Below are positions 55,461 through 64,000 of a stretch of 64,000 nucleotides of DNA, piece after piece. The position numbers were made by a program, and so were the translations under genes. Under the pieces are notes generated by a model, which was not told the origin of the DNA, made no database searches, and worked only from the letters and a program-made list of their open reading frames with translations. Each line of letters begins with the position of its first letter. Positions within the stretch are counted from its first letter, which is position 1. The stretch lies in contig OZ240248.1 in NCBI GenBank assembly GCA_965198235.1, positions 2,528,001 to 2,592,000 of the forward strand, read 5' to 3'. This DNA comes from Candidatus Poribacteria bacterium (lineage in GTDB: Bacteria; Poribacteria; WGA-4E; WGA-3G).

Positions 55461-56233
55461 TGTCTAACGAGCCTTTACAGGAACAACTCGCTTTGTTATA
55501 CCACTTACAAGAGCGTGACCAAGAACTGTTGTCAACCCAGCAAAAACTTCAAGATATCCCGAATCACATTAAGCAATTAGAAGCGACGGTCGTGCAGTGT
55601 GAAGAGGATTTTGCAGCAAAATCGGCGGAACTCGCGGAGGCAGAAAAGGCGCAGCGTTCCAAAAACGCTGAACTTGAAATGAATGCTGTGCAACGCGAAA
55701 AATATCGAAATGAACAACGAGTTGTCACCTCAAACGAAGCTTATACTGCCCTTGAACGTCAAATTGAATTTCTCGACAAAGAAGACGGGGAATCGGAAGA
55801 TACTATCTTAGTTCTTATGGAGAAAAGCGATCAATTAAAAGAGGAATTGGCAACATTGGAAGTTGAAGTCAACCGCGAAAAGCAGAAAACCGCTACTGAA
55901 ACTGCGCAACTCCAACAAGAACTCCAGGACTTAGAGACAGAGAGGGATGAAAAGTTGAAGCAGCGGAAGGCGTTTCTTCCTAAAATTAACAAAGGACTCA
56001 GAGACGAATATCACCGCTGGATGAAGGCGCAGTTTGCAAACCAGTCCCGCGCAGCACGAGCGAAAACTGGTTTCGTCGCCCTAAGCAAAAACGGTATCTG
56101 TACCAGTTGCCGCATCGCTATTCAACCCCAGACCCTCAAGGAGGCTCAAAAGTATCAGAAGCAGGTCTACTGTTCAAGTTGCCAAAGGCTTCTTTACGTC
56201 GAGCCTGCCACACCCGATGTTACATTTCCGTAG
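55460..56233 (+). CDS. Coiled-coil C4 zinc-ribbon protein (CT398/DUF164-like)
   Basis: Long coiled coil, CTSC...CSSCQRLLY. Confidence 0.85.
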   Translation: MSNEPLQEQLALLYHLQERDQELLSTQQKLQDIPNHIKQLEATVVQCEEDFAAKSAELAEAEKAQRSKNAELEMNAVQREKYRNEQRVVTSNEAYTALERQIEFLDKEDGESEDTILVLMEKSDQLKEELATLEVEVNREKQKTATETAQLQQELQDLETERDEKLKQRKAFLPKINKGLRDEYHRWMKAQFANQSRAARAKTGFVALSKNGICTSCRIAIQPQTLKEAQKYQKQVYCSSCQRLLYVEPATPDVTFP

Positions 56234-56304
56234 AAAGGTTATGCATTCACTGACAACTGATAACTGACTGCAACACATATCTAAACAGGAGGCACTCACA
56301 ACCA

Positions 56305-56631
56305 ATGCCCTTTTTTGTCATTGATGAGCAACCGGAAAAGCAGGTGTTTGATGGCGCAAGTATTCGGACACTTCACGGTGAAAAAGTAATGATGTCCTTC
56401 GTCAATCTCCAACCTCATAGTGTCGTTGCTGAGCACAGCCATCCACATGAACAGATGGGAATGGTACTGGAGGGGACATTTGAACTGTCCATTGACGGAG
56501 ATTCTCAGATACTCAAAAAGGGTGATGCTTACCTTATTCCTTCCAACGTGAAGCACAGCGCGAGAGCGTTTGAAGAGCCCGCTGTTGCTCTTGACATTTT
56601 TAGTCCGCCACGAGAAGATTACAAGTTATGA
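56305..56631 (+). CDS. Cupin domain protein
   Basis: HSHPHEQ, IPSNVKHS, DIFSPPREDY. Confidence 0.9.
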   Translation: MPFFVIDEQPEKQVFDGASIRTLHGEKVMMSFVNLQPHSVVAEHSHPHEQMGMVLEGTFELSIDGDSQILKKGDAYLIPSNVKHSARAFEEPAVALDIFSPPREDYKL

Positions 56632-57383
56632 AGACGTATCGCGCGATTCAGGAATTTCAAACAACCCGTATTGTCACTGCCGGTATTAGTCTGCGAACTG
56701 GTGGTGTCAGCCACGCACCTTACGCAGCCTTGAATCTCGCTGAGCATGTCGGTGACGATGCGACTGCAGTCGCGACCAACAAGAGAATCCTTTTTCGGCA
56801 AACCGGCTTAAAGGACCTGCGGTGTTGTCGTCAAGTTCATGGTAATTGTGTTATTGATGTAGATAACACAGCGGGAGCATCTCTTGAAAACCCTCCTGAG
56901 GCGGATGCCCTTGTCGCGGCGTGTCACGGCGTGACATTGGGAATTTTTACGGCGGATTGTGTCCCTATTTTCATTCTTGATATTGAAACGCCAGCAATCG
57001 GTATCGCGCATGCGGGGTGGCGCGGCACCTTCGCTCGAATTGCGGTGAACACGCTTGCACAAATGAAAGCCAGTTTCGGAACCGTTGCTACAAACTGCCG
57101 AATTCATTTGGGGCCCTCTATCCAGAGATGTTGCTATACCGTCAGTACAGAATTGCTCACTCAATTTGCTGAACGTTTCGGCAGCACCGTCCACAATGGA
57201 ACAAACTTGAGTCTACAGGCTGCCAATGTTAACCAATTGGTTGAAGCAGGTTTACCCTCCACTTCCATCTCAATATCCCCACTTTGCACCGCTTGTCGTA
57301 CAGACCTCTTTTATTCGCATCGGGCTGAGAACGGACAAACGGGTAGAATGCTCTCATTTATCCGACTCAATACCGAAAATTAA
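56628..57383 (+). CDS. pgeF: PgeF/YfiH family protein
   Basis: QVHG, TADCVP, AHAGWRG, GPSI..CCY, CT.C...FYSHR...GR. Confidence 0.9.
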   Translation: MKTYRAIQEFQTTRIVTAGISLRTGGVSHAPYAALNLAEHVGDDATAVATNKRILFRQTGLKDLRCCRQVHGNCVIDVDNTAGASLENPPEADALVAACHGVTLGIFTADCVPIFILDIETPAIGIAHAGWRGTFARIAVNTLAQMKASFGTVATNCRIHLGPSIQRCCYTVSTELLTQFAERFGSTVHNGTNLSLQAANVNQLVEAGLPSTSISISPLCTACRTDLFYSHRAENGQTGRMLSFIRLNTEN

Positions 57384-57726
57384 GCCTATCTCACAAATAC
57401 CGATTCGTCAGATTCGGTCCCACCTCTCGGTTCTACAAACTGTTTGTGAGATGATTTATAGAGGTTGTCCAGGGCAATTTCATCTTTGGTTGTAGAAATC
57501 AATCCTTGTGACGAAAAATTTGCTTTTCTTGGAAAAATATAGTATCATTAATAATATATAAATACATATTAAAGGCACGAATAAAGAAGCAACAGTATCA
57601 GCATTGCCCGTAGTCGAAACCTTACTACAATTTGTAACGTTATTTTCCTTAGATGTTCCAGCCTGTTTAGGACGATAATTTCTTAAACTCGTTGTTAGGT
57701 AACAATTTGGCATCCGCCGGAAAGAA

Positions 57727-58011
57727 TTGAAAATGCGCGTGCTCTTTGCAACGTTATCAATCGTTACAGGTTTGGTCGGGCTTGTTTTTATTATACAAGG
57801 TGGCAACCATCCTTCCAAGTATCGGGAGGTTTTGTCCGAAAGCGTGAGTGCCGTCCAAGTCACACAAGTTTATACGGAGGCAACGTATAAGATAGCTGTT
57901 GGTATTGGGATTGTTAGTATTGCTGTCTTAGTCGCCGTTATTGGTATACTCTTTCACGCAGGCAAGCCTTTAAATCCAGATCCGCCATCAACAGACAATC
58001 TTGAAGGTTGA
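57727..58011 (+). CDS. Small two-TM hypothetical protein
   Basis: Two hydrophobic segments in a 94-aa ORF. Confidence 0.55.
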   Translation: MKMRVLFATLSIVTGLVGLVFIIQGGNHPSKYREVLSESVSAVQVTQVYTEATYKIAVGIGIVSIAVLVAVIGILFHAGKPLNPDPPSTDNLEG

Positions 58012-58777
58012 CATACTCTTTAATCGAACCAATTTTGGAATTGAAAAATTGAACTTGATTGTCGATAATCTTTCCAAGATCAATGAACGCATTGCCAGTG
58101 CTGCAGAACGGAGTAAACGCACGCTCGATTCAATAACGCTCGTTGCTGTTACGAAAGGGCGTTCAGTGGCGGAAATTCGGACGGTTCTCGCCGCAGGGGC
58201 ATCGGACATAGGTGAAAACCGGGTACAGGAAGCGCAACAGAAGTACGCTCCGGTCAATTCATTTGTGGATGCTGCAGATACTGATGCCAGTGATAATACA
58301 TGCCGATGGCATCTTATTGGACATTTGCAAAGAAATAAGGTTAAAACCGCATTGGAGATGTTTTCACTGATTCATTCAGTTGACAGTTTGCGGCTTTTAG
58401 CAGAGATAGCACACCGGTCTGAACAACGCTCACAACGAACAGATGTTTTAATTCAGGTAAATACGACTCGCGAGGCAAGTAAACACGGATTGGCAGCCGA
58501 TGATTTGCTTCGGTTCATTGAAGACGCACAGGCATATCCGGCAGTCCACATCGTTGGGTTGATGACAATGGGGCAGTTAACGCCTTCACCGGACGCAAAC
58601 CGTCCCGCGTTCGCTTTGCTAAGATCGCTTGCTGAAAAAATAGAAGCCCAAAAATTCCCTGGAGTTACTATGAAGTATCTTTCTATGGGGATGACAAACG
58701 ACTTTGAGGTCGCCGTTCAGGAAGGCGCGAACCTCGTTAGAATCGGTAGGGCGATCTTCGAGGTTTCAGAGGAATAG
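58001..58777 (+). CDS. yggS: PLP homeostasis protein YggS
   Basis: LVAVTK, GENRVQE, WHLIGHLQRNK, LSMGMTNDF..A..EGA..VRIG; start may be TTG 58049. Confidence 0.93.
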   Translation: MKVDILFNRTNFGIEKLNLIVDNLSKINERIASAAERSKRTLDSITLVAVTKGRSVAEIRTVLAAGASDIGENRVQEAQQKYAPVNSFVDAADTDASDNTCRWHLIGHLQRNKVKTALEMFSLIHSVDSLRLLAEIAHRSEQRSQRTDVLIQVNTTREASKHGLAADDLLRFIEDAQAYPAVHIVGLMTMGQLTPSPDANRPAFALLRSLAEKIEAQKFPGVTMKYLSMGMTNDFEVAVQEGANLVRIGRAIFEVSEE

Positions 58778-59007
58778 CCATCAGTTGTCAGCCTGCCTCG
58801 CAGTGAGAGTTGAAGAGAGTTCTGATAGCTCGAACACCTTGCTGGCGAGGTTTTCAATCCTGTTCTTGTCTGATAACTAAAATACCAACGAAACTGTAGC
58901 CCGAAATGAAATAGAGGGGTTTTTGCTTGGGGTGTTTCTTCAGTTCTACGGAAAGGCACGTCATAAGCGAAACCTACCTGAACGAACCGCAAGGAATAAT
59001 TAAAAAC

Positions 59008-59808
59008 ATGGAGTTAGGTGTAATAGGCGTTGGAAAGATGGGCGGCATTATCGTCCGAAGTATCGCTGACACGGTATTTCCTGCCGAACAGATTTGGGTT
59101 ACCGACCTTGATAACACCCTCGTCGAGCAGCTCTGCGATGAAAAAGGGACTAACAGGGCAAGCGATATTACTACCTTGGTAGAAAATACTCAAGTTATTT
59201 TCTGTGCTGTCACACCTGCGGCAGTCCCACACGTCTTGCCACAGGTAGCACGCGCCTTATCAGCACCACAATGGCTCATTAGCATCGCAGCTGGTGTTAC
59301 GACCACAACGCTTGAATCCTACTTTGACAACGCTCCACCCGTCGTTCGGGTAATGCCAAATATCTCAGCCTCGGTGGGTGCTGCAATCTCGGTATTAACG
59401 GCTGGCAGCGCGGCGAATCAGGAGCATCTTGAAATAGCACAACAAATTTTCAACGCTTGTGGCACCTCTTTAGTGATGGATGAACGTCATCTTGATGCTG
59501 TTACCGGGGTAAGTGGGAGTGGTCCTGCCTATGTTGCACTCTTCATCGAAGCGTTAGCGGATGCAGGTGTTCATGTCGGTTTACCTCGGACGGATGCACA
59601 GAAACTCGCCACCCATACAGTCTTAGGCGCAGCTACGATGTTAATTGAAACGCAGGAACATCCGGCTGTACTCAAGAACCGTGTTACCACACCGGGCGGG
59701 ACAACCGCCGCCGGACTGCACGCTTTAGAACGAGGCGGTTTACGAGCAACTCTTACAGAAGCCATCCTCGCTGCGACGGAGCGAGCAAAGGAACTTGGCA
59801 ATACGTAA
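59008..59808 (+). CDS. proC: Pyrroline-5-carboxylate reductase
   Basis: IGVGKMG, SIAAG, RVMPN, SGSGPAY, VTTPGGTT. Confidence 0.95.
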   Translation: MELGVIGVGKMGGIIVRSIADTVFPAEQIWVTDLDNTLVEQLCDEKGTNRASDITTLVENTQVIFCAVTPAAVPHVLPQVARALSAPQWLISIAAGVTTTTLESYFDNAPPVVRVMPNISASVGAAISVLTAGSAANQEHLEIAQQIFNACGTSLVMDERHLDAVTGVSGSGPAYVALFIEALADAGVHVGLPRTDAQKLATHTVLGAATMLIETQEHPAVLKNRVTTPGGTTAAGLHALERGGLRATLTEAILAATERAKELGNT

Positions 59809-59837
59809 TAAGTTTGTGAGTTAACAGGACCCAAACA

Positions 59838-60101
59838 ATGGATATGCTCGCTTGGTTCATCAGTGAACTGCTTGAAATTTACACAATAATGGTTTTCGCG
59901 AATGCCGTACTCTCTTGGTTTGTTGGTGGCACACAAAACTCAGTCGTTAGGCAGCTCTACTGGTGGACAAGTCGCCTCGTGGATCCAGTTTTAAGTCCGA
60001 TTCGGAATGCACTCGGACCGGTGACTCGGAATTTTGGTATTGACATTTCACCTTTTGTGCTGATTCTTCTGTTACAATTTTTGGCTCATATCCTCTGGTG
60101 A
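59838..60101 (+). CDS. yggT: YggT family membrane protein
   Basis: VLSWF, DPVLSPIR, IDISP; follows proC. Confidence 0.85.
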   Translation: MDMLAWFISELLEIYTIMVFANAVLSWFVGGTQNSVVRQLYWWTSRLVDPVLSPIRNALGPVTRNFGIDISPFVLILLLQFLAHILW

Positions 60102-60231
60102 TAGATAGAAGGATATGCCAATCTGCTTGACACAGTGAAAACTGAGGAGACGGTTCGCACGAAAAAGCATAACCTCCTCAAGAGCCGCTTACCGTGTTGA
60201 CAAGCGGTCTCAGAAATCACAATACGAAAAT

Positions 60232-62967
60232 ATGAGAAAACGAAATTCCACCGCAAAAAGCACAACGCGTAAACGGGGTAAATCCGCGAAGCCGGAAGAG
60301 AAACCTCAATTGACGGACCGCGAAAGAGAAAACGCCGTTCTGGAAATTTGGGGGAACGCTAATGTATACCCACTCGCGAACAAAAAATCTGGCACCCTGG
60401 AGCGCAACACAGTCAAGGCGAACGCTACGCGGTCCCGCCACTCCTCCCAGACGGAAACCTATGTCCTTCGCGAGATGCCCACCTCAGTCGATGCATTCAC
60501 TCTTAACACACTTTGTAGAAAAGTTTGTCAGGACATCTTCCTTAAAGCAGAGTTAATGCAAGGGCATCATGTCACATACATACCCGCGTGGGAAACCTAC
60601 CCCCTTTGGATTGAGGAATACGTTATTGAGGCTGCAAAGTCTAAAACGCCAATCAAGTTATCTGTCCTCCGGAAGCGATGTCGCGCACGACATAAACAGG
60701 AATTAGAAGTCCAAAAACAGAAATTTCATCAACTCGGTATCTTCGCGGATTGGGATACTTCACAGAAAACCCTCGAATCGCGACAGGAAGCAAGGCTTAT
60801 TGCGCTTATTAGTCGACTCCGTGATTCTGACTATCTGCATGACTTGCCGCAGCTGAGTCCATGGTGCCCCAACTGCACTGTCCCGATAAATGAAACGAAC
60901 CTCGTACAAATACCGACACACACCTTGAATGGCTACGTAAAGTTTCCTTTCAATGTCGGGTTAGAGGAATTTGGCATTAATGTTTTCTTCTGTCTCCAAA
61001 TGCCGCACCTTTGGGAAATAGCAGGAATCGTTGAACTCGGAATTACTGACAATACTACCTATTGGCTCACCCAATGGCAAGACGAATACCTACTTTTTGC
61101 GGAACCGCAGCTCAAACACTTTACGAAACACCTTCCAAAAAGGCAACCTAAACCGAAACCCGTCAAAGAAATCAAAGCCTCTGAGCTTGTGCAATGCGCT
61201 GTGGCGCATCCACTATTTCCGTCAAAAGACTTAAAGATTACGCTAATTCCTGAAGCCGTGGCAACAGAGGCTGTCCGCGACAAATCAATATCTTCCTTAG
61301 AATCCGGTGTTATGCCCTTAAATCCTGCACATCATCAGTCCAGTTACGACATCGCTCAAGCGTTAAACATGAATACTATGCCTGTTTTTGATGAAACCGG
61401 AAGGTTCACCGAGGAAGCTGGGCAATTGTGTGGTTTGTATCTGTTTGATGCTGAGAAATTTATTGTTCCACAATTGGAAAAATGTGGCTATCTCCTCAAA
61501 ACACAAAAAGGCGAGATGCATGAGCCCCACTGTCCACGCTGTAGAGAATTGGCTGTGTTTCGTCCCTGTTCAAAATGGGTGTTCTCTATTTCCGAAAACC
61601 ATGCCACTACTCAGTTACTCAACGCCCAAGAATATTGGGATAATTACGGCGACACGAATCATAAAGATATTCGCGATGTACAAAACGCTGTCCTCAATTT
61701 CGGAGATTTGCAGGTTTCAGCACAGCGCCAATGGGGGATGCCGCTTCCAATCCTCCTTTGCGACCATTGCGATGAGCCTCTTACTGATAAAAATACTCTC
61801 AATGCAATCCGGAATTCTATACAACGAGGGTTTGAATTCTGGTTCCGATTGAGCGTTGAGGAACTTTTACCTGTCGATACACGGTGTCTAAACTGTAATT
61901 CAAGTGACTTCCGCAAGGAAGCTACGCTCATTGATAGCCATTTCGCCAATTTACTTCAAATTATTGACAATTCTGACTTCAAGAAACCGCTCGGTGGGCA
62001 TACCAGTGTTATGTTTGTACCCCAAACTGACACAGCCGATTCAAAATGGACAAAATGGTTAGCCGAGATCAGTGTTATCTCCGCCTCACTTAGCAGAAGT
62101 CGTCCAATTAAAGAAAGCCAACCTTTTAAGCAACTAAAGCTTAACACAATGCCGAAAGTTGGTGGGGAAATACAAGTCGAAGACACATTTCTCAACAAAT
62201 ATCCAGCTGACGTGGCACGCCTGGTTGCAATAACTCCTAATGTCGGAACAGAGCAGGTTAACCGCAGGCAGCTTAACAAACTCGCAGAGGACTACCTTGT
62301 TCAATATCAGCAATTGCAGGGACTATTAGAGAGTATCAGTAATTGCCTCTACCATTTTGGGCAGGATTCTCAAAGTAGAAACAAAACAGAATCGAAAGAT
62401 GTATCTCTGGAGGAACGTCCCAACGAAAGACATAGCGGCAAACGGGGGGCTGAGACGGGTATCACTAATACACAGACACTTACTCATCTGAAGGCGCAGC
62501 GGATAGAAGGCGCAAGTGCCGCTACTACTGATAAAATTATGCCGATTGATTCGTTGGCGATAATTGTTACCTCTCAACTGTTACAGGATGTACAGCGGGC
62601 TTACCAAGATGGGAATTTCCATGAAATGTGGACCCTGTTAACCGATTTCTGTGTAGATGATCTTCGTTTTTATCTCCGCGCCATGGAATCGCGTCCTGCT
62701 ACAACCCTACATGTGGCGCAAACCACCTTGTCACAAATCGCGACTGCGCTCCTGCAACAGTTGGCACCCTTGACTCCTTTTTTGGCGGAACATTTCTATC
62801 ATCTCATTTCTGCAGAGGGTATAACTGGTAACCGTAGCATTTTTCAGAATAATTGGCACCGACTCTCACCTATTATCGGGCAAACTTTGCATGTTTCCGA
62901 TATAGAGACGAATGATGCAAAAGCGGAGTGGGAGGTGCTTAAGAATGCCGACAATGCAGGATCCTAA
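60232..62967 (+). CDS. Isoleucyl-tRNA synthetase-like protein with degenerate catalytic motifs
   Basis: LGIFADW, WCPNC, YVKFP, PHCPRC, SAQRQWGMPLP, LAPLTPFLAE; upstream of lspA; no HIGH or KMSKS. Confidence 0.8.
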   Translation: MRKRNSTAKSTTRKRGKSAKPEEKPQLTDRERENAVLEIWGNANVYPLANKKSGTLERNTVKANATRSRHSSQTETYVLREMPTSVDAFTLNTLCRKVCQDIFLKAELMQGHHVTYIPAWETYPLWIEEYVIEAAKSKTPIKLSVLRKRCRARHKQELEVQKQKFHQLGIFADWDTSQKTLESRQEARLIALISRLRDSDYLHDLPQLSPWCPNCTVPINETNLVQIPTHTLNGYVKFPFNVGLEEFGINVFFCLQMPHLWEIAGIVELGITDNTTYWLTQWQDEYLLFAEPQLKHFTKHLPKRQPKPKPVKEIKASELVQCAVAHPLFPSKDLKITLIPEAVATEAVRDKSISSLESGVMPLNPAHHQSSYDIAQALNMNTMPVFDETGRFTEEAGQLCGLYLFDAEKFIVPQLEKCGYLLKTQKGEMHEPHCPRCRELAVFRPCSKWVFSISENHATTQLLNAQEYWDNYGDTNHKDIRDVQNAVLNFGDLQVSAQRQWGMPLPILLCDHCDEPLTDKNTLNAIRNSIQRGFEFWFRLSVEELLPVDTRCLNCNSSDFRKEATLIDSHFANLLQIIDNSDFKKPLGGHTSVMFVPQTDTADSKWTKWLAEISVISASLSRSRPIKESQPFKQLKLNTMPKVGGEIQVEDTFLNKYPADVARLVAITPNVGTEQVNRRQLNKLAEDYLVQYQQLQGLLESISNCLYHFGQDSQSRNKTESKDVSLEERPNERHSGKRGAETGITNTQTLTHLKAQRIEGASAATTDKIMPIDSLAIIVTSQLLQDVQRAYQDGNFHEMWTLLTDFCVDDLRFYLRAMESRPATTLHVAQTTLSQIATALLQQLAPLTPFLAEHFYHLISAEGITGNRSIFQNNWHRLSPIIGQTLHVSDIETNDAKAEWEVLKNADNAGS

Positions 62968-63457
62968 AAAAAATATGTGGCAGACGCTTCTACCCTTAAT
63001 CGGCGTGGCGATTCCAGTGTTGATAGTAGATTGGGGGAGTAAATGGCTGGTGCAGAACCATATCGCTCAGGTTACAGAGGTAATTCCGATTATTCCCGGT
63101 TTTTTTAACCTTCGGCACGATAGGAATACAGGAGCGGCTTTTGGCGTACTTGCTGGACACAGGGTCTTACTTATTCTCATTACTATTATTGCTTTAGCCT
63201 TCATTTTCGCCTATTATCTTCGATTCAGAGAGAGCCGTTGGATGCAAGTCGCTCTCGGTTTTCTACTCGGTGGTGCTGTTGGAAACTTCATTGATCGGCT
63301 CTATTTGGGTGAGGTCGTCGATTTCCTTCAATTCGGCATAGCTGACAAAGGACTCTTTTGGCCGACCTTTAACATTGCGGATATTTCTGTCTGTGTTGGG
63401 GCGGGGATGTTAATTGTTTACCTTTTTCAAAATCGCGATCAAAACCAGGAAACTTAA
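62954..63457 (+). CDS. lspA: Lipoprotein signal peptidase
   Basis: NTGAAFG, GGAVGNFIDR, VVDF, FNIAD. Confidence 0.95.
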   Translation: MQDPKKNMWQTLLPLIGVAIPVLIVDWGSKWLVQNHIAQVTEVIPIIPGFFNLRHDRNTGAAFGVLAGHRVLLILITIIALAFIFAYYLRFRESRWMQVALGFLLGGAVGNFIDRLYLGEVVDFLQFGIADKGLFWPTFNIADISVCVGAGMLIVYLFQNRDQNQET

Positions 63458-63576
63458 CTTCTACCCACTTTTTGTAGGTATTCTTGGCAAGTACACCAGT
63501 CGATGGCGTATCTGTAATTATTGGTTTCACTGTAAATATAAAGATATAAAGCAACTTTTGTCCCGGAAGGTAATCC

Positions 63577-64000
63577 ATGTGTAAATTGGGTGTTCGATTA
63601 TTCTTGCTTAATCTAATCTTTCTTTTCTTAGTAATCCCACATGCAAAAGCGCAATTTCAGACCGAATCTCCCACGACGGAGACGGAACAAACGGAACCAG
63701 TGGGATATAGCGAAAGTGCTTTGCGACGGTTTGAGATCGTTACGTTGAGTTCCATACCGTTTACCGCTATTCACAGTTACGGAATAATGCGCATAGTAAA
63801 AATGTTGAGTGAAAATAAATTCGCGCCTGAATTGTCCCCGTGGGACTATCGCATAATTGGCATCGGTGCTGTTTCATTGTCTGTGTTTATTGGGGTATGG
63901 GATTGGTTGCATACTCGTAATGTTGACCGGTCAGCACCGCGTGTGCCTGAACCAGAAACGCCTCTACCGCCTGAAGGTGAGGAACCCGTGGAGGGGACTC
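63577..64000 (+). CDS. Hypothetical exported/membrane protein (runs off window end)
   Basis: Signal-peptide-like start, ESALRRFEIVTLSSIPFT, open to the end of the window. Confidence 0.6.
   Translation, partial: MCKLGVRLFLLNLIFLFLVIPHAKAQFQTESPTTETEQTEPVGYSESALRRFEIVTLSSIPFTAIHSYGIMRIVKMLSENKFAPELSPWDYRIIGIGAVSLSVFIGVWDWLHTRNVDRSAPRVPEPETPLPPEGEEPVEGT

Follow-up and report, generated by a model that had tools for sequence, protein, structure and literature searches.

A selected and very probably catalytically dead derivative of type 1 isoleucyl-tRNA synthetase at the ileS-lspA position of Candidatus Poribacteria

Near the end of the 64,000-nucleotide stretch of contig OZ240248.1 from a Candidatus Poribacteria bacterium that was analysed here (the whole stretch, hereafter the window), an open reading frame (ORF) at 60232..62967 on the forward strand encodes a 911-residue protein. 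This protein, here called pseudo-IleRS1, very probably is a catalytically dead derivative of a type 1 isoleucyl-tRNA synthetase (IleRS1) that is maintained by selection. In the scenario that we propose, the resident IleRS1 gene of the phylum would still occupy its ancestral place in front of lspA, its catalysis would have been lost before the sampled Poribacteria lineages diverged, and a type 2 enzyme (IleRS2) carrying the GVHH signature would charge tRNA(Ile). What the old gene encodes would have been preserved over its full length as a protein of IleRS fold, probably stabilised by zinc, on which purifying selection appears strongest in the Rossmann halves and the two CxxC knuckles, weaker in what were the editing and anticodon domains, and almost lacking in a disordered linker. 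The pseudo-enzyme may thus serve as a non-catalytic binding module whose conserved core holds a protein partner or a small ligand; granted that the protein is dead and selected, such a role for the core is plausible, if a little short of probable. With the uncertainty of that binding role weighed in, a dead but selected IleRS1 derivative still is a likely description.

The ORF starts with ATG and the ORF list and translation hold no internal stop. Pfam finds synthetase domains only: tRNA-synt_1 (6.8e-22, 78.2 bits, residues 75-667), Anticodon_1 (2.7e-14, 53.7 bits, residues 780-879), and a weak tRNA-synt_1g. Among NCBIfam models ileS (TIGR00392) fits best, yet its 209.6 bits stay below the curated cut-off of 621.4, which leaves the protein outside this equivalog; pseudo copies from other lineages reach 269.9, 306.3 and 445.8 bits, each again below the cut-off. 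In a phmmer search of PDB residues 73-703 match the S. aureus IleRS 1ffy at E 6.9e-39, and the scores of the protein are 136.7 and 129.4 bits with IleRS1 versus 70.9 bits with IleRS2. An AlphaFold2 (AF2) model made from 80 aligned sequences has a mean predicted local distance difference test score (pLDDT) of 81.2 and a predicted template modelling score (pTM) of 0.79; pLDDT below 50 or predicted disorder is confined to residues 1-27, 57-71, 723-766, and 881-888. The top Foldseek matches of this model are IleRS1 structures, 8c9f (E 3.6e-40, template modelling (TM) score 0.69) and 1qu2_A (TM 0.70), followed by IleRS2 (TM 0.63) and ValRS (0.58). In sequence and in fold, then, the protein lies nearer to IleRS1 than to IleRS2, and because of the AF2 model and these matches it is predicted to have the complete IleRS architecture minus the C-terminal Zn-finger domain. 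A first, sequence-only reading of this DNA had described an uninterrupted ORF collinear with IleRS and had proposed a structure prediction as a check; the Pfam and 1ffy matches bear out the former, the prediction returned the IleRS1 fold at TM 0.69-0.70, and both homology and collinearity appear to exceed chance by far.

HIGH and KMSKS are required for adenylation by class I synthetases, and neither is present in this protein. The motifs were compared in a HMMER alignment to 1ffy and in MAFFT alignments that included 44 true IleRS1; the resulting features of the gene are as follows.

60232..62967, + strand: pseudo-IleRS1 coding sequence, 911 residues, intact, catalytically degenerate (Pfam, TIGR00392, AF2, Foldseek)
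60232..60318, + strand: basic disordered N-terminal tail, residues 1-29 (charge, pLDDT)
60448..60951, + strand: first Rossmann half and base of the connective peptide (CP), residues 73-240, the most constrained part
60499..60510, + strand: HIGH-equivalent, T-L-N-T (alignments to 1ffy and 44 true IleRS1)
60586..60603, + strand: GWDxHG-equivalent, A-W-E-T-Y-P (alignments)
60865..60876, + strand: CxxC (C212, C215), first half of Zn knuckle 1 (alignment)
60952..61521, + strand: homologue of CP1, the editing domain, residues 241-430, with the family-specific GLEEFG at 243-248 (alignment, dN/dS)
60994..61014, + strand: WTTTPWT-equivalent, L-Q-M-P-H-L-W (alignments)
61300..61347, + strand: equivalent of the editing motif GTGxVHxAPxHGxDDY, ESGVMPLNPAHHQSSY (alignments)
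61531..61542, + strand: CxxC (C434, C437), second half of Zn knuckle 1 (alignment)
61717..61737, + strand: SxQRxWG, S496-G502, retained (alignment)
61759..61896, + strand: second Zn knuckle (C510, C513 ... C552, C555) with the family-specific R527 and F560 (FRKE) (alignment)
62146..62172, + strand: KMSKS-equivalent loop, TMPKVGGEI (alignments)
62398..62529, + strand: disordered, fast-evolving linker, residues 723-766, its length varying between genomes (pLDDT, dN/dS)
62530..62871, + strand: helical homologue of the anticodon-binding domain, residues 767-880 (Anticodon_1), not followed by the C-terminal Zn-finger domain found in IleRS1

In the window protein GPPYANG..HMGH has become EMPTSVDA-FTLNT, with T90-L91-N92-T93 at the place of HIGH; GWDTHGLPIE reads AWETYPLWIE; WTTTPWT reads LQMPHLW; and the editing motif GTGCVHTAPGHGEDDY reads ESGVMPLNPAHHQSSY. 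The editing-site His and Asp are P362 and S371 in the window genus, other lineages retaining differing subsets of the site. EGxDQxRGWF is unrecognisable, and KMSKS corresponds to TMPKV or to VGGEI, the aligners lying about 4 residues apart and placing KMSKS in neither. Retained are C212/C215, C434/C437, C510/C513, C552/C555, the S496-xQRQWG segment, and APLTPFLAE at 845-853; the CxxC knuckles presumably bind zinc, as in IleRS structures. The C-terminal Zn-finger domain of IleRS1 (CxxC...CxxC) is absent from the window protein. Its N-terminal tail holds 10 K+R versus 3 D+E in residues 1-29, a net charge of +7; similar K/R/S/T-rich tails occur in the other genera of family f1 and are absent from deeper lineages. 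Each motif replacement named by the sequence-only reading was seen in both kinds of alignment. The CxxC pairs, SxQRxWG and anticodon-domain motif that it listed as kept are indeed present, and the charge count agrees with the basic N-terminal extension that it had noticed.

The loss is shared by the family. Copies from 11 deep lineages were aligned with the 44 true IleRS1, which came from a HMMER search of the whole library (2579 matches at E <=1e-3, 94 at E <=1e-30), and HIGH or KMSKS is kept in none of the 11. The columns compared for HIGH, KMSKS, GWDxHG, and EGxDQxRGWF are 100% conserved in the true enzymes. Of those for HIGH, the first His and the Gly are found in 0/11 lineages and the last His in 1/11; the K, S, K and S columns of KMSKS are each kept in 0-1/11. 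In GWDxHG the W (W120) persists throughout (11/11), the D in 6, the H in 1, and the G in none. The EGxDQxRGWF columns are mostly lost, apart from E (6/11) and W (9/11), and the three Thr columns of WTTTPWT are kept in 0, 0 and 2 lineages; no lineage keeps both halves of the CP1 editing site together. Residues of the Ile pocket are mostly gone as well (the Q column in 0/11, the W570 column in 1/11). The statement that the catalytic motifs have disappeared, first made for the window protein, therefore holds in every lineage examined.

Other columns are held more tightly than in the working enzymes. The eight knuckle cysteines are present in 10-11 of the 11 lineages versus 48-70% of true IleRS1: C212 and C215 in 11 and 10 (fractions of 0.70 and 0.64 in true IleRS1), C434 and C437 in 11 and 10, and C510, C513, C552, and C555 in 11 each (0.55-0.59); both halves of knuckle 1 are lost together in f4 g10. 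The SxQRxWG segment keeps its S in 11/11 and its R, W, and G in 9/11 each. G243, E245, and G248 of GLEEFG are each found in 11/11, at a place where true IleRS1 are mostly gapped, R527 and F560 likewise in 11/11, and R184 in 9/11. Altogether 87 columns are common to at least 9 of the 11 lineages, and these include G243, E245, G248, R527, F560, and P849, which are not conserved in true IleRS1; P83, W120, W609, and R663 are retained in the pseudo family. The Cys columns of the C-terminal Zn finger are kept in two lineages (G002/P0162 and P0131), which fits a secondary loss of that domain. Decay also differs by lineage: G002 keeps TPWT and the C-terminal Cys, f5 keeps PGHNQDDY, and the window genus keeps neither. 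From this pattern the order of decay appears to be the synthetic site first, with the editing site and the C-terminal domain following later, lineage by lineage.

All pseudo copies fall into one clade, with support of 100 in a FastTree tree (38 rows) and values of 99 (16 rows) and 100 (13 rows) for the Shimodaira-Hasegawa-like approximate likelihood ratio test (SH-aLRT) in quick IQ-TREE trees under LG+G4. The clade lies inside or beside IleRS1, on the IleRS1 side of the IleRS2 outgroup. The IQ-TREE trees omit most of the near-identical f1 sequences, f4g12_G081, f6g14_G046 and, in the 13-row tree, P0148, as well as representatives shorter than 720 or longer than 1150 residues, save three fusion proteins cut at residue 1000. 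Monophyly of the Poribacteria clade thus seems well supported but not proven, because the methods are fast and the branches long. Shared synteny (see below) and shared derived residues are independent support for a single origin.

The work of charging tRNA(Ile) appears to have passed to another gene. The genome of the window (5.17 Mb in 2 contigs, 96.3% complete) has a single place passing the ileS cut-off, G000:C1:1239359-1241872, with 965.5 bits. The ORF there (G000:C1:1239299-1242490; L001 1441-4632) encodes 1063 residues with KMSKS, WTTTPWT, and GWDTHG, and scores about 1020-1032 bits with the P. megaterium IleRS2 in PDB and 357 bits with IleRS1. GVHH replaces HXGH in this protein, and the same GVHH together with KMSKS is found in all 21 IleRS2 genes fetched from the genus. 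The working IleRS of the genome appears to be the type 2 enzyme, much as the sequence-only reading had guessed when it placed the real IleRS elsewhere, for example as an IleRS2. Across the phylum, the ileS model exceeds its cut-off in 119/121 genomes, each time as a single IleRS2-like place of 1045-1194 residues; the only other match of this model listed in the 121 genomes is the dead copy of G002 (445.5 bits, below the cut-off). The IleRS2 of families f2 and f3 (e.g. G020:C1:6496228-6498432) measure 1120-1194 residues, their single-piece ileS match starts at about position 130, and they reach the cut-off only together with neighbouring in-frame pieces, which suggests an insertion near the N-terminus. 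According to Brkic et al. (2023, PMC10485003), the G/AXHH variant occurs only in IleRS2, where it confers hyper-resistance to mupirocin, HXGH is present in 158/158 of the IleRS1 they sampled, and an IleRS1 into which GXHH was swapped gave no detectable product. These findings are the strongest experimental ground available for regarding an IleRS1 scaffold that lacks HXGH as inactive.

That the pseudo-IleRS1 gene is under purifying selection was judged from the ratio of nonsynonymous to synonymous divergence (dN/dS), computed pairwise by the Nei-Gojobori method (NG86) in the 30 genomes of the genus for which loci were available, out of 45 when that of the window is counted (21 genomes for IleRS2). 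The median for pseudo-IleRS1 is 0.153 (interquartile range 0.135-0.177; 411/435 pairs usable), and the same calculation gives 0.057 for IleRS2, 0.096 for lspA, and 0.280 for yggT. In four pairs, three of the closest among them, nonsynonymous changes fall short of synonymous ones with Fisher p values from 3e-17 to 7e-46. Along the protein the ratio is distributed as follows.

Residues 1-80: dN/dS 0.31-0.40 (residues 1-40: 0.395)
Residues 81-240: 0.027-0.087 (windows of 40 residues; proportion of synonymous differences, pS, normal at 0.49-0.63)
Residues 241-360: 0.15-0.24
Residues 361-640: 0.041-0.129, with 0.041-0.077 in the second Zn knuckle
Residues 641-720: 0.24-0.32
Residues 721-760, linker: 0.586
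Residues 761-880, anticodon-domain homologue: 0.24-0.28

The constrained parts show a normal synonymous divergence, and in spite of its lost catalytic residues the old core is about as constrained as the working enzyme. The protein thus combines an enzyme fold without catalytic residues, as found by alignment, AF2 and Foldseek, with purifying selection on its sequence. Neither frame disruption nor a dN/dS near 1, as expected of a unitary pseudogene, was found (no stops, dN/dS 0.15). The argument of the sequence-only reading that an intact frame points to selection and not to decay gains weight from these values and from the distribution: a search of 121 Poribacteria genomes with the 911-residue protein (E <=1e-20) gave matches in 107, with identities from 91% down to about 25% and internal stops in none. 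By group these are, for genus g1, 44/44 and, for the families, f1 81/81, f2 0/9, f3 15/19, f4 3/3, f5 4/4, f6 1/1, f7 2/2, and f8 0/1.

The gene lies in a conserved block, in which its neighbours in the window are:

56628-57383, + strand: pgeF-like gene, upstream and on the same strand as pseudo-IleRS1
58001-58777, + strand: yggS-like gene, upstream
58927-59808, + strand: proC, upstream
59838..60101, + strand: yggT, immediately upstream (YGGT 8.7e-17)
62912..63457, + strand: lspA, signal peptidase II, immediately downstream (Peptidase_A8 5.6e-40)

The overlap between the pseudo-IleRS1 and lspA ORFs is at most 56 nt, varying with the true ATG start of lspA. Adjacency of ileS and lspA is typical of bacteria, and a place directly upstream of lspA, as expected of the type 1 lineage, is found in the window; 19 of 20 deep-lineage loci share the window order yggS-proC-(yggT)-X-lspA-next, where X is pseudo-IleRS1. 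The sequence-only reading was right about this position and less so in speaking of a paralog; by position the gene is an ortholog, and the term resident IleRS1 of the phylum fits it better. Such proteins should not be counted as a second IleRS in annotation; close relatives in Candidatus Poribacteria go by 'class I tRNA ligase family protein' or 'hypothetical protein'. The one locus of the 20 in which lspA was not detected downstream is L058 (G005, genus g2), which could reflect a rearrangement or a divergent lspA. After lspA stands an ORF of 188 residues with a hydrophobic N-terminus (window 63577-64000 and beyond; L009 4846-5412), whose position is conserved across the phylum at 37-67% identity. 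No Rfam family matched within 56000-64000 at E <=0.1, and so no T-box or other leader RNA was seen there. Promoter-like sites (6 versus 6.9 expected) and terminator-like sites (5 versus 4.7) in 58800-64000 are at chance level.

The region is matched at >=95% by contigs of four RNA libraries, all produced in one sponge metatranscriptome study. In run X1 a contig of 3358 nt covers 58800-62117 with 2 differing letters and another of 1362 nt covers 62088-63449, so that the whole gene is covered. These contigs attest presence in RNA libraries only, and neither level nor transcript ends. In X2-X4 some parts of the gene lack cover, from which no conclusion follows, and runs X5-X19 share only 0.14-0.17 of the words and carry no weight here. 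The contigs of X1 and X2 have one additional A following 60226, six bases before the start codon, and small indels separate the RNA-library contigs from the window at 58877-59012; both probably are strain differences.

Several points weigh against a dead but selected derivative with a binding core. That the protein is dead is deduced from motif loss and from published mutagenesis of IleRS1. The tree methods were fast ones, in which attraction between long branches is a risk. The neighbours are ancestral genes of the end of the division and cell wall (dcw) cluster and are uninformative on function. Synonymous divergence in the genus set is close to saturation (median dS 1.19), and closer pairs with the genome of the window (dS 0.2-0.45) give a higher dN/dS of 0.16-0.32. 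The RNA-library contigs, all from one study, could stem from carried-over DNA. That the lost K/R columns discussed below are tRNA contacts is an assumption, and some RNA contact is possible because the anticodon domain is constrained (dN/dS 0.24-0.28) and f1 has its basic tail. Finally, the gene was not found in 13/121 genomes, the copy of G004 (f8) being counted as present since inspection of its lspA locus found it cut by the contig end. Of the other four non-matching genomes inspected at this locus, G001, G010 and G020 (f2) and G003 (f3 g7) have a clean deletion (loci L079-L082): yggT is followed by lspA after a gap of 108-538 nt and the remaining block is unchanged. Pseudo-IleRS1 is therefore dispensable in some backgrounds, and with loss in two lineages (f2 and f3 g7) its role cannot be universally essential. 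The yggT-lspA gap of G003 holds an ORF of 122 residues.

On function, the sequence-only reading had suggested retention for a non-catalytic role such as tRNA or RNA binding. The non-catalytic part stands; binding of tRNA(Ile) in the classical manner is less likely, given that the C-terminal Zn domain and most conserved basic residues are gone. True IleRS1 have K or R in at least 80% of sequences at 29 columns; at 22 of these, fewer than 60% of the pseudo sequences still do, and the four at 693-700, which we take to be residues of the stem-contact fold (SC), are kept at only 0.11-0.35. The net charge of the KMSKS-loop/SC region shifts from +2 in true IleRS1 to -4 in the pseudo copies. Overall isoelectric point (pI) was tried as a discriminator and discarded, with medians of 6.39 (n=136) and 6.55 (n=44) that do not separate the two groups. 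A search for fused forms of 1596-4555 residues with the core (residues 73-640) gave none at E <=1e-30, which is weak evidence, shorter or split forms being outside the search.

We regard it as unlikely that the protein is a non-catalytic tRNA- or RNA-binding factor, that is, a chaperone, sequestering factor or sensor of tRNA(Ile) or another RNA which would use the IleRS fold and the anticodon domain, helped by the f1 tail. Such a factor would agree with an Anticodon_1 domain that is still recognised at 53.7 bits and constrained, with the retained SxQRxWG and Zn knuckles, and with the +7 charge over the 29 residues of the tail, whose composition is conserved across f1 genera; a precedent is the HisRS-like domain of GCN2, which has no synthetase activity left and binds tRNA in its uncharged form. 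It agrees less with the loss of most conserved K/R columns, those at 693-700 above all, with a pI no different from that of true IleRS1, and with the absence of the C-terminal Zn-finger domain from the window protein and 9/11 deep lineages. The basic tail is missing in the deeper lineages and, being confined to f1, cannot be the common functional element of the family.

Still less probable is an enzyme with new chemistry, in which a remodelled Rossmann/CP core would have no more need of ATP and would act on another substrate, e.g. aminoacyl-tRNA or a metabolite. The strongest constraint does lie in the former catalytic core, at 0.03-0.09 as low as in IleRS2 (0.057), and new polar residues are invariant or nearly so (E245 and R527 in 11/11, R184 in 9/11). 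Cyclodipeptide synthases, described as class I synthetase-like enzymes that use aminoacyl-tRNAs (PMC3105412), manage without HIGH or KMSKS and offer a precedent. Set against this, no candidate catalytic constellation was identified, no biosynthetic genes lie nearby in the window neighbourhood or the deep loci, the Ile-pocket residues are mostly lost (Q in 0/11, W570 in 1/11), and Pfam recognises synthetase domains only.

Two further explanations are very improbable. One is that the protein is functionless and the ORF stays open only because translation through it drives the overlapping lspA. The overlap of up to 56 nt, the adjacency of the pair in 19/20 deep loci, and the RNA-library contig that spans the junction (62088-63449) would suit such coupling; it would not hold dN/dS at 0.03-0.09 over hundreds of codons nor keep 87 columns across deep lineages, and the four genomes in which the gene is deleted keep lspA directly after yggT. 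The other is a working IleRS with unconventional active-site residues, for which the complete IleRS architecture and the retained P83, W120, W609, and R663 might speak. HIGH, KMSKS, the His and Gly of GWDxHG and the Gln and Arg of EGxDQxRGWF are gone, 119/121 sampled genomes have a canonical IleRS2, and IleRS1 is reported to be intolerant even of the GXHH swap (PMC10485003). Least of all can a decaying pseudogene, still open by chance, account for the gene, even though its catalytic motifs are all lost, it is deleted in some lineages, and its dN/dS is 2.7x that of IleRS2: barring misassembly, this is refuted by the absence of internal stops in 107 matched genomes spanning 91% to about 25% identity, by a dN/dS of 0.15 that is far below 1, and by Fisher p values down to 7e-46, to which the confident AF2 fold (pLDDT 81.2) may be added.

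A selected, non-catalytic derivative of the resident IleRS1 is thus the reading that we retain. A dead resident IleRS1 whose core is conserved like that of a housekeeping enzyme suggests that the IleRS scaffold has acquired another use outside translation, a rare case of a translation enzyme recycled for a non-catalytic job, and it offers a natural experiment on the fate of a drug-sensitive synthetase after a resistant-type enzyme takes over. More speculatively, and on balance improbably, pseudo-IleRS1 could be the founding member of an undescribed class of full-length pseudo-synthetases. Once an IleRS2 of the hyper-resistant type (GVHH) had taken over charging, the Rossmann/CP core of the drug-sensitive IleRS1, with its Zn knuckles, would have found new use as a sensor or a regulatory partner, the status of branched-chain amino acids and the translation apparatus being examples of what it might sense or regulate. 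There would then be at least two cases of such a change, the second being a clade that includes fusions with dehydrogenases.

This second set consists of full-length, IleRS1-like public metagenome proteins with degenerate HIGH and KMSKS (P0150, P0151, P0158, P0165, P0173, P0178, P0180, P0196, P0198, P0206, P0215, P0233, and P0246). It forms a clade separate from that of Poribacteria (support 90) and, unlike the latter, mostly keeps GWDCHG and EGxDQxRGW, and therefore probably the amino-acid pocket. Inside it fall three proteins, P0169 (1441 residues), P0212 (1469 residues), and P0191 (1266 residues), with a C-terminal ELFV_dehydrog_N domain, accompanied in P0169 and P0212 by ELFV_dehydrog; these are domains of Glu/Leu/Phe/Val dehydrogenase. 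Their HIGH reads HVGI or ASAT and their KMSKS reads RMARA or TMSKL or is absent, while GWDCHG is present in all three and EGxDQxRGWF is intact in two and reads ESVEQSRGWI in P0191. A scan of genome contigs with P0151 found only relatives at 35-36%, in a metagenome-assembled genome (MAG) of Paenibacillaceae and one of Omnitrophica. If this clade is confirmed, catalysis by IleRS1 would have been lost with the scaffold kept more than once, and at least once with a physical link to amino-acid metabolism.

Compared with bacterial IleRS1 (S. aureus 1ffy/1qu2; P. megaterium 8c9e/8c9f), pseudo-IleRS1 has the same fold and domain order (TM 0.68-0.70 over about 915 columns), the position upstream of lspA, the CxxC knuckles, SxQRxWG and the anticodon-domain motif, at only 17-18% identity in the fold alignment. 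It differs from them by the loss of HIGH, KMSKS, GWDxHG, EGxDQxRGWF, the Thr-rich and Asp editing motifs, and the C-terminal Zn finger, and by the addition of a basic N-terminal tail and a 44-residue disordered linker. Synthetase homologues that do not aminoacylate and serve other roles, for instance as regulatory subunits or sensors of uncharged tRNA, are already known as a kind, e.g. HisZ, the HisRS-like domain of GCN2, and the second LeuRS of Sulfolobus islandicus. These examples come from other synthetases and either act with known partners or are joined to an effector domain, whereas pseudo-IleRS1 is a free-standing, full-length class Ia protein. A dead IleRS is apparently undescribed, and our literature search found no description of one. 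The likeness to cyclodipeptide synthases does not go beyond the principle that a class I fold can lack the ATP motifs; by Pfam the protein is not a member of that family. IleRS is reported to be among the most stable synthetases in a survey of more than 2500 prokaryotic genomes (PMC5388404). For Planctomycetes, both IleS types and the loss, in some species, of the polyproline motif next to HIGH are reported, with no mention there of dead copies (PMC11388002). The closest parallel in gene content is found in the Bacillaceae, the only group with species possessing both ileS1 and ileS2 in the sample of 278 sequences described by Zanki et al. (bioRxiv 10.1101/2022.02.09.479832), where, as here, the two gene types share one genome and type 1 sits at the conserved position. 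In Priestia megaterium, as described, both enzymes are active, with IleRS1 as the fast housekeeping enzyme and IleRS2 as the stress-induced one; in Poribacteria the roles appear reversed, with IleRS1 dead.

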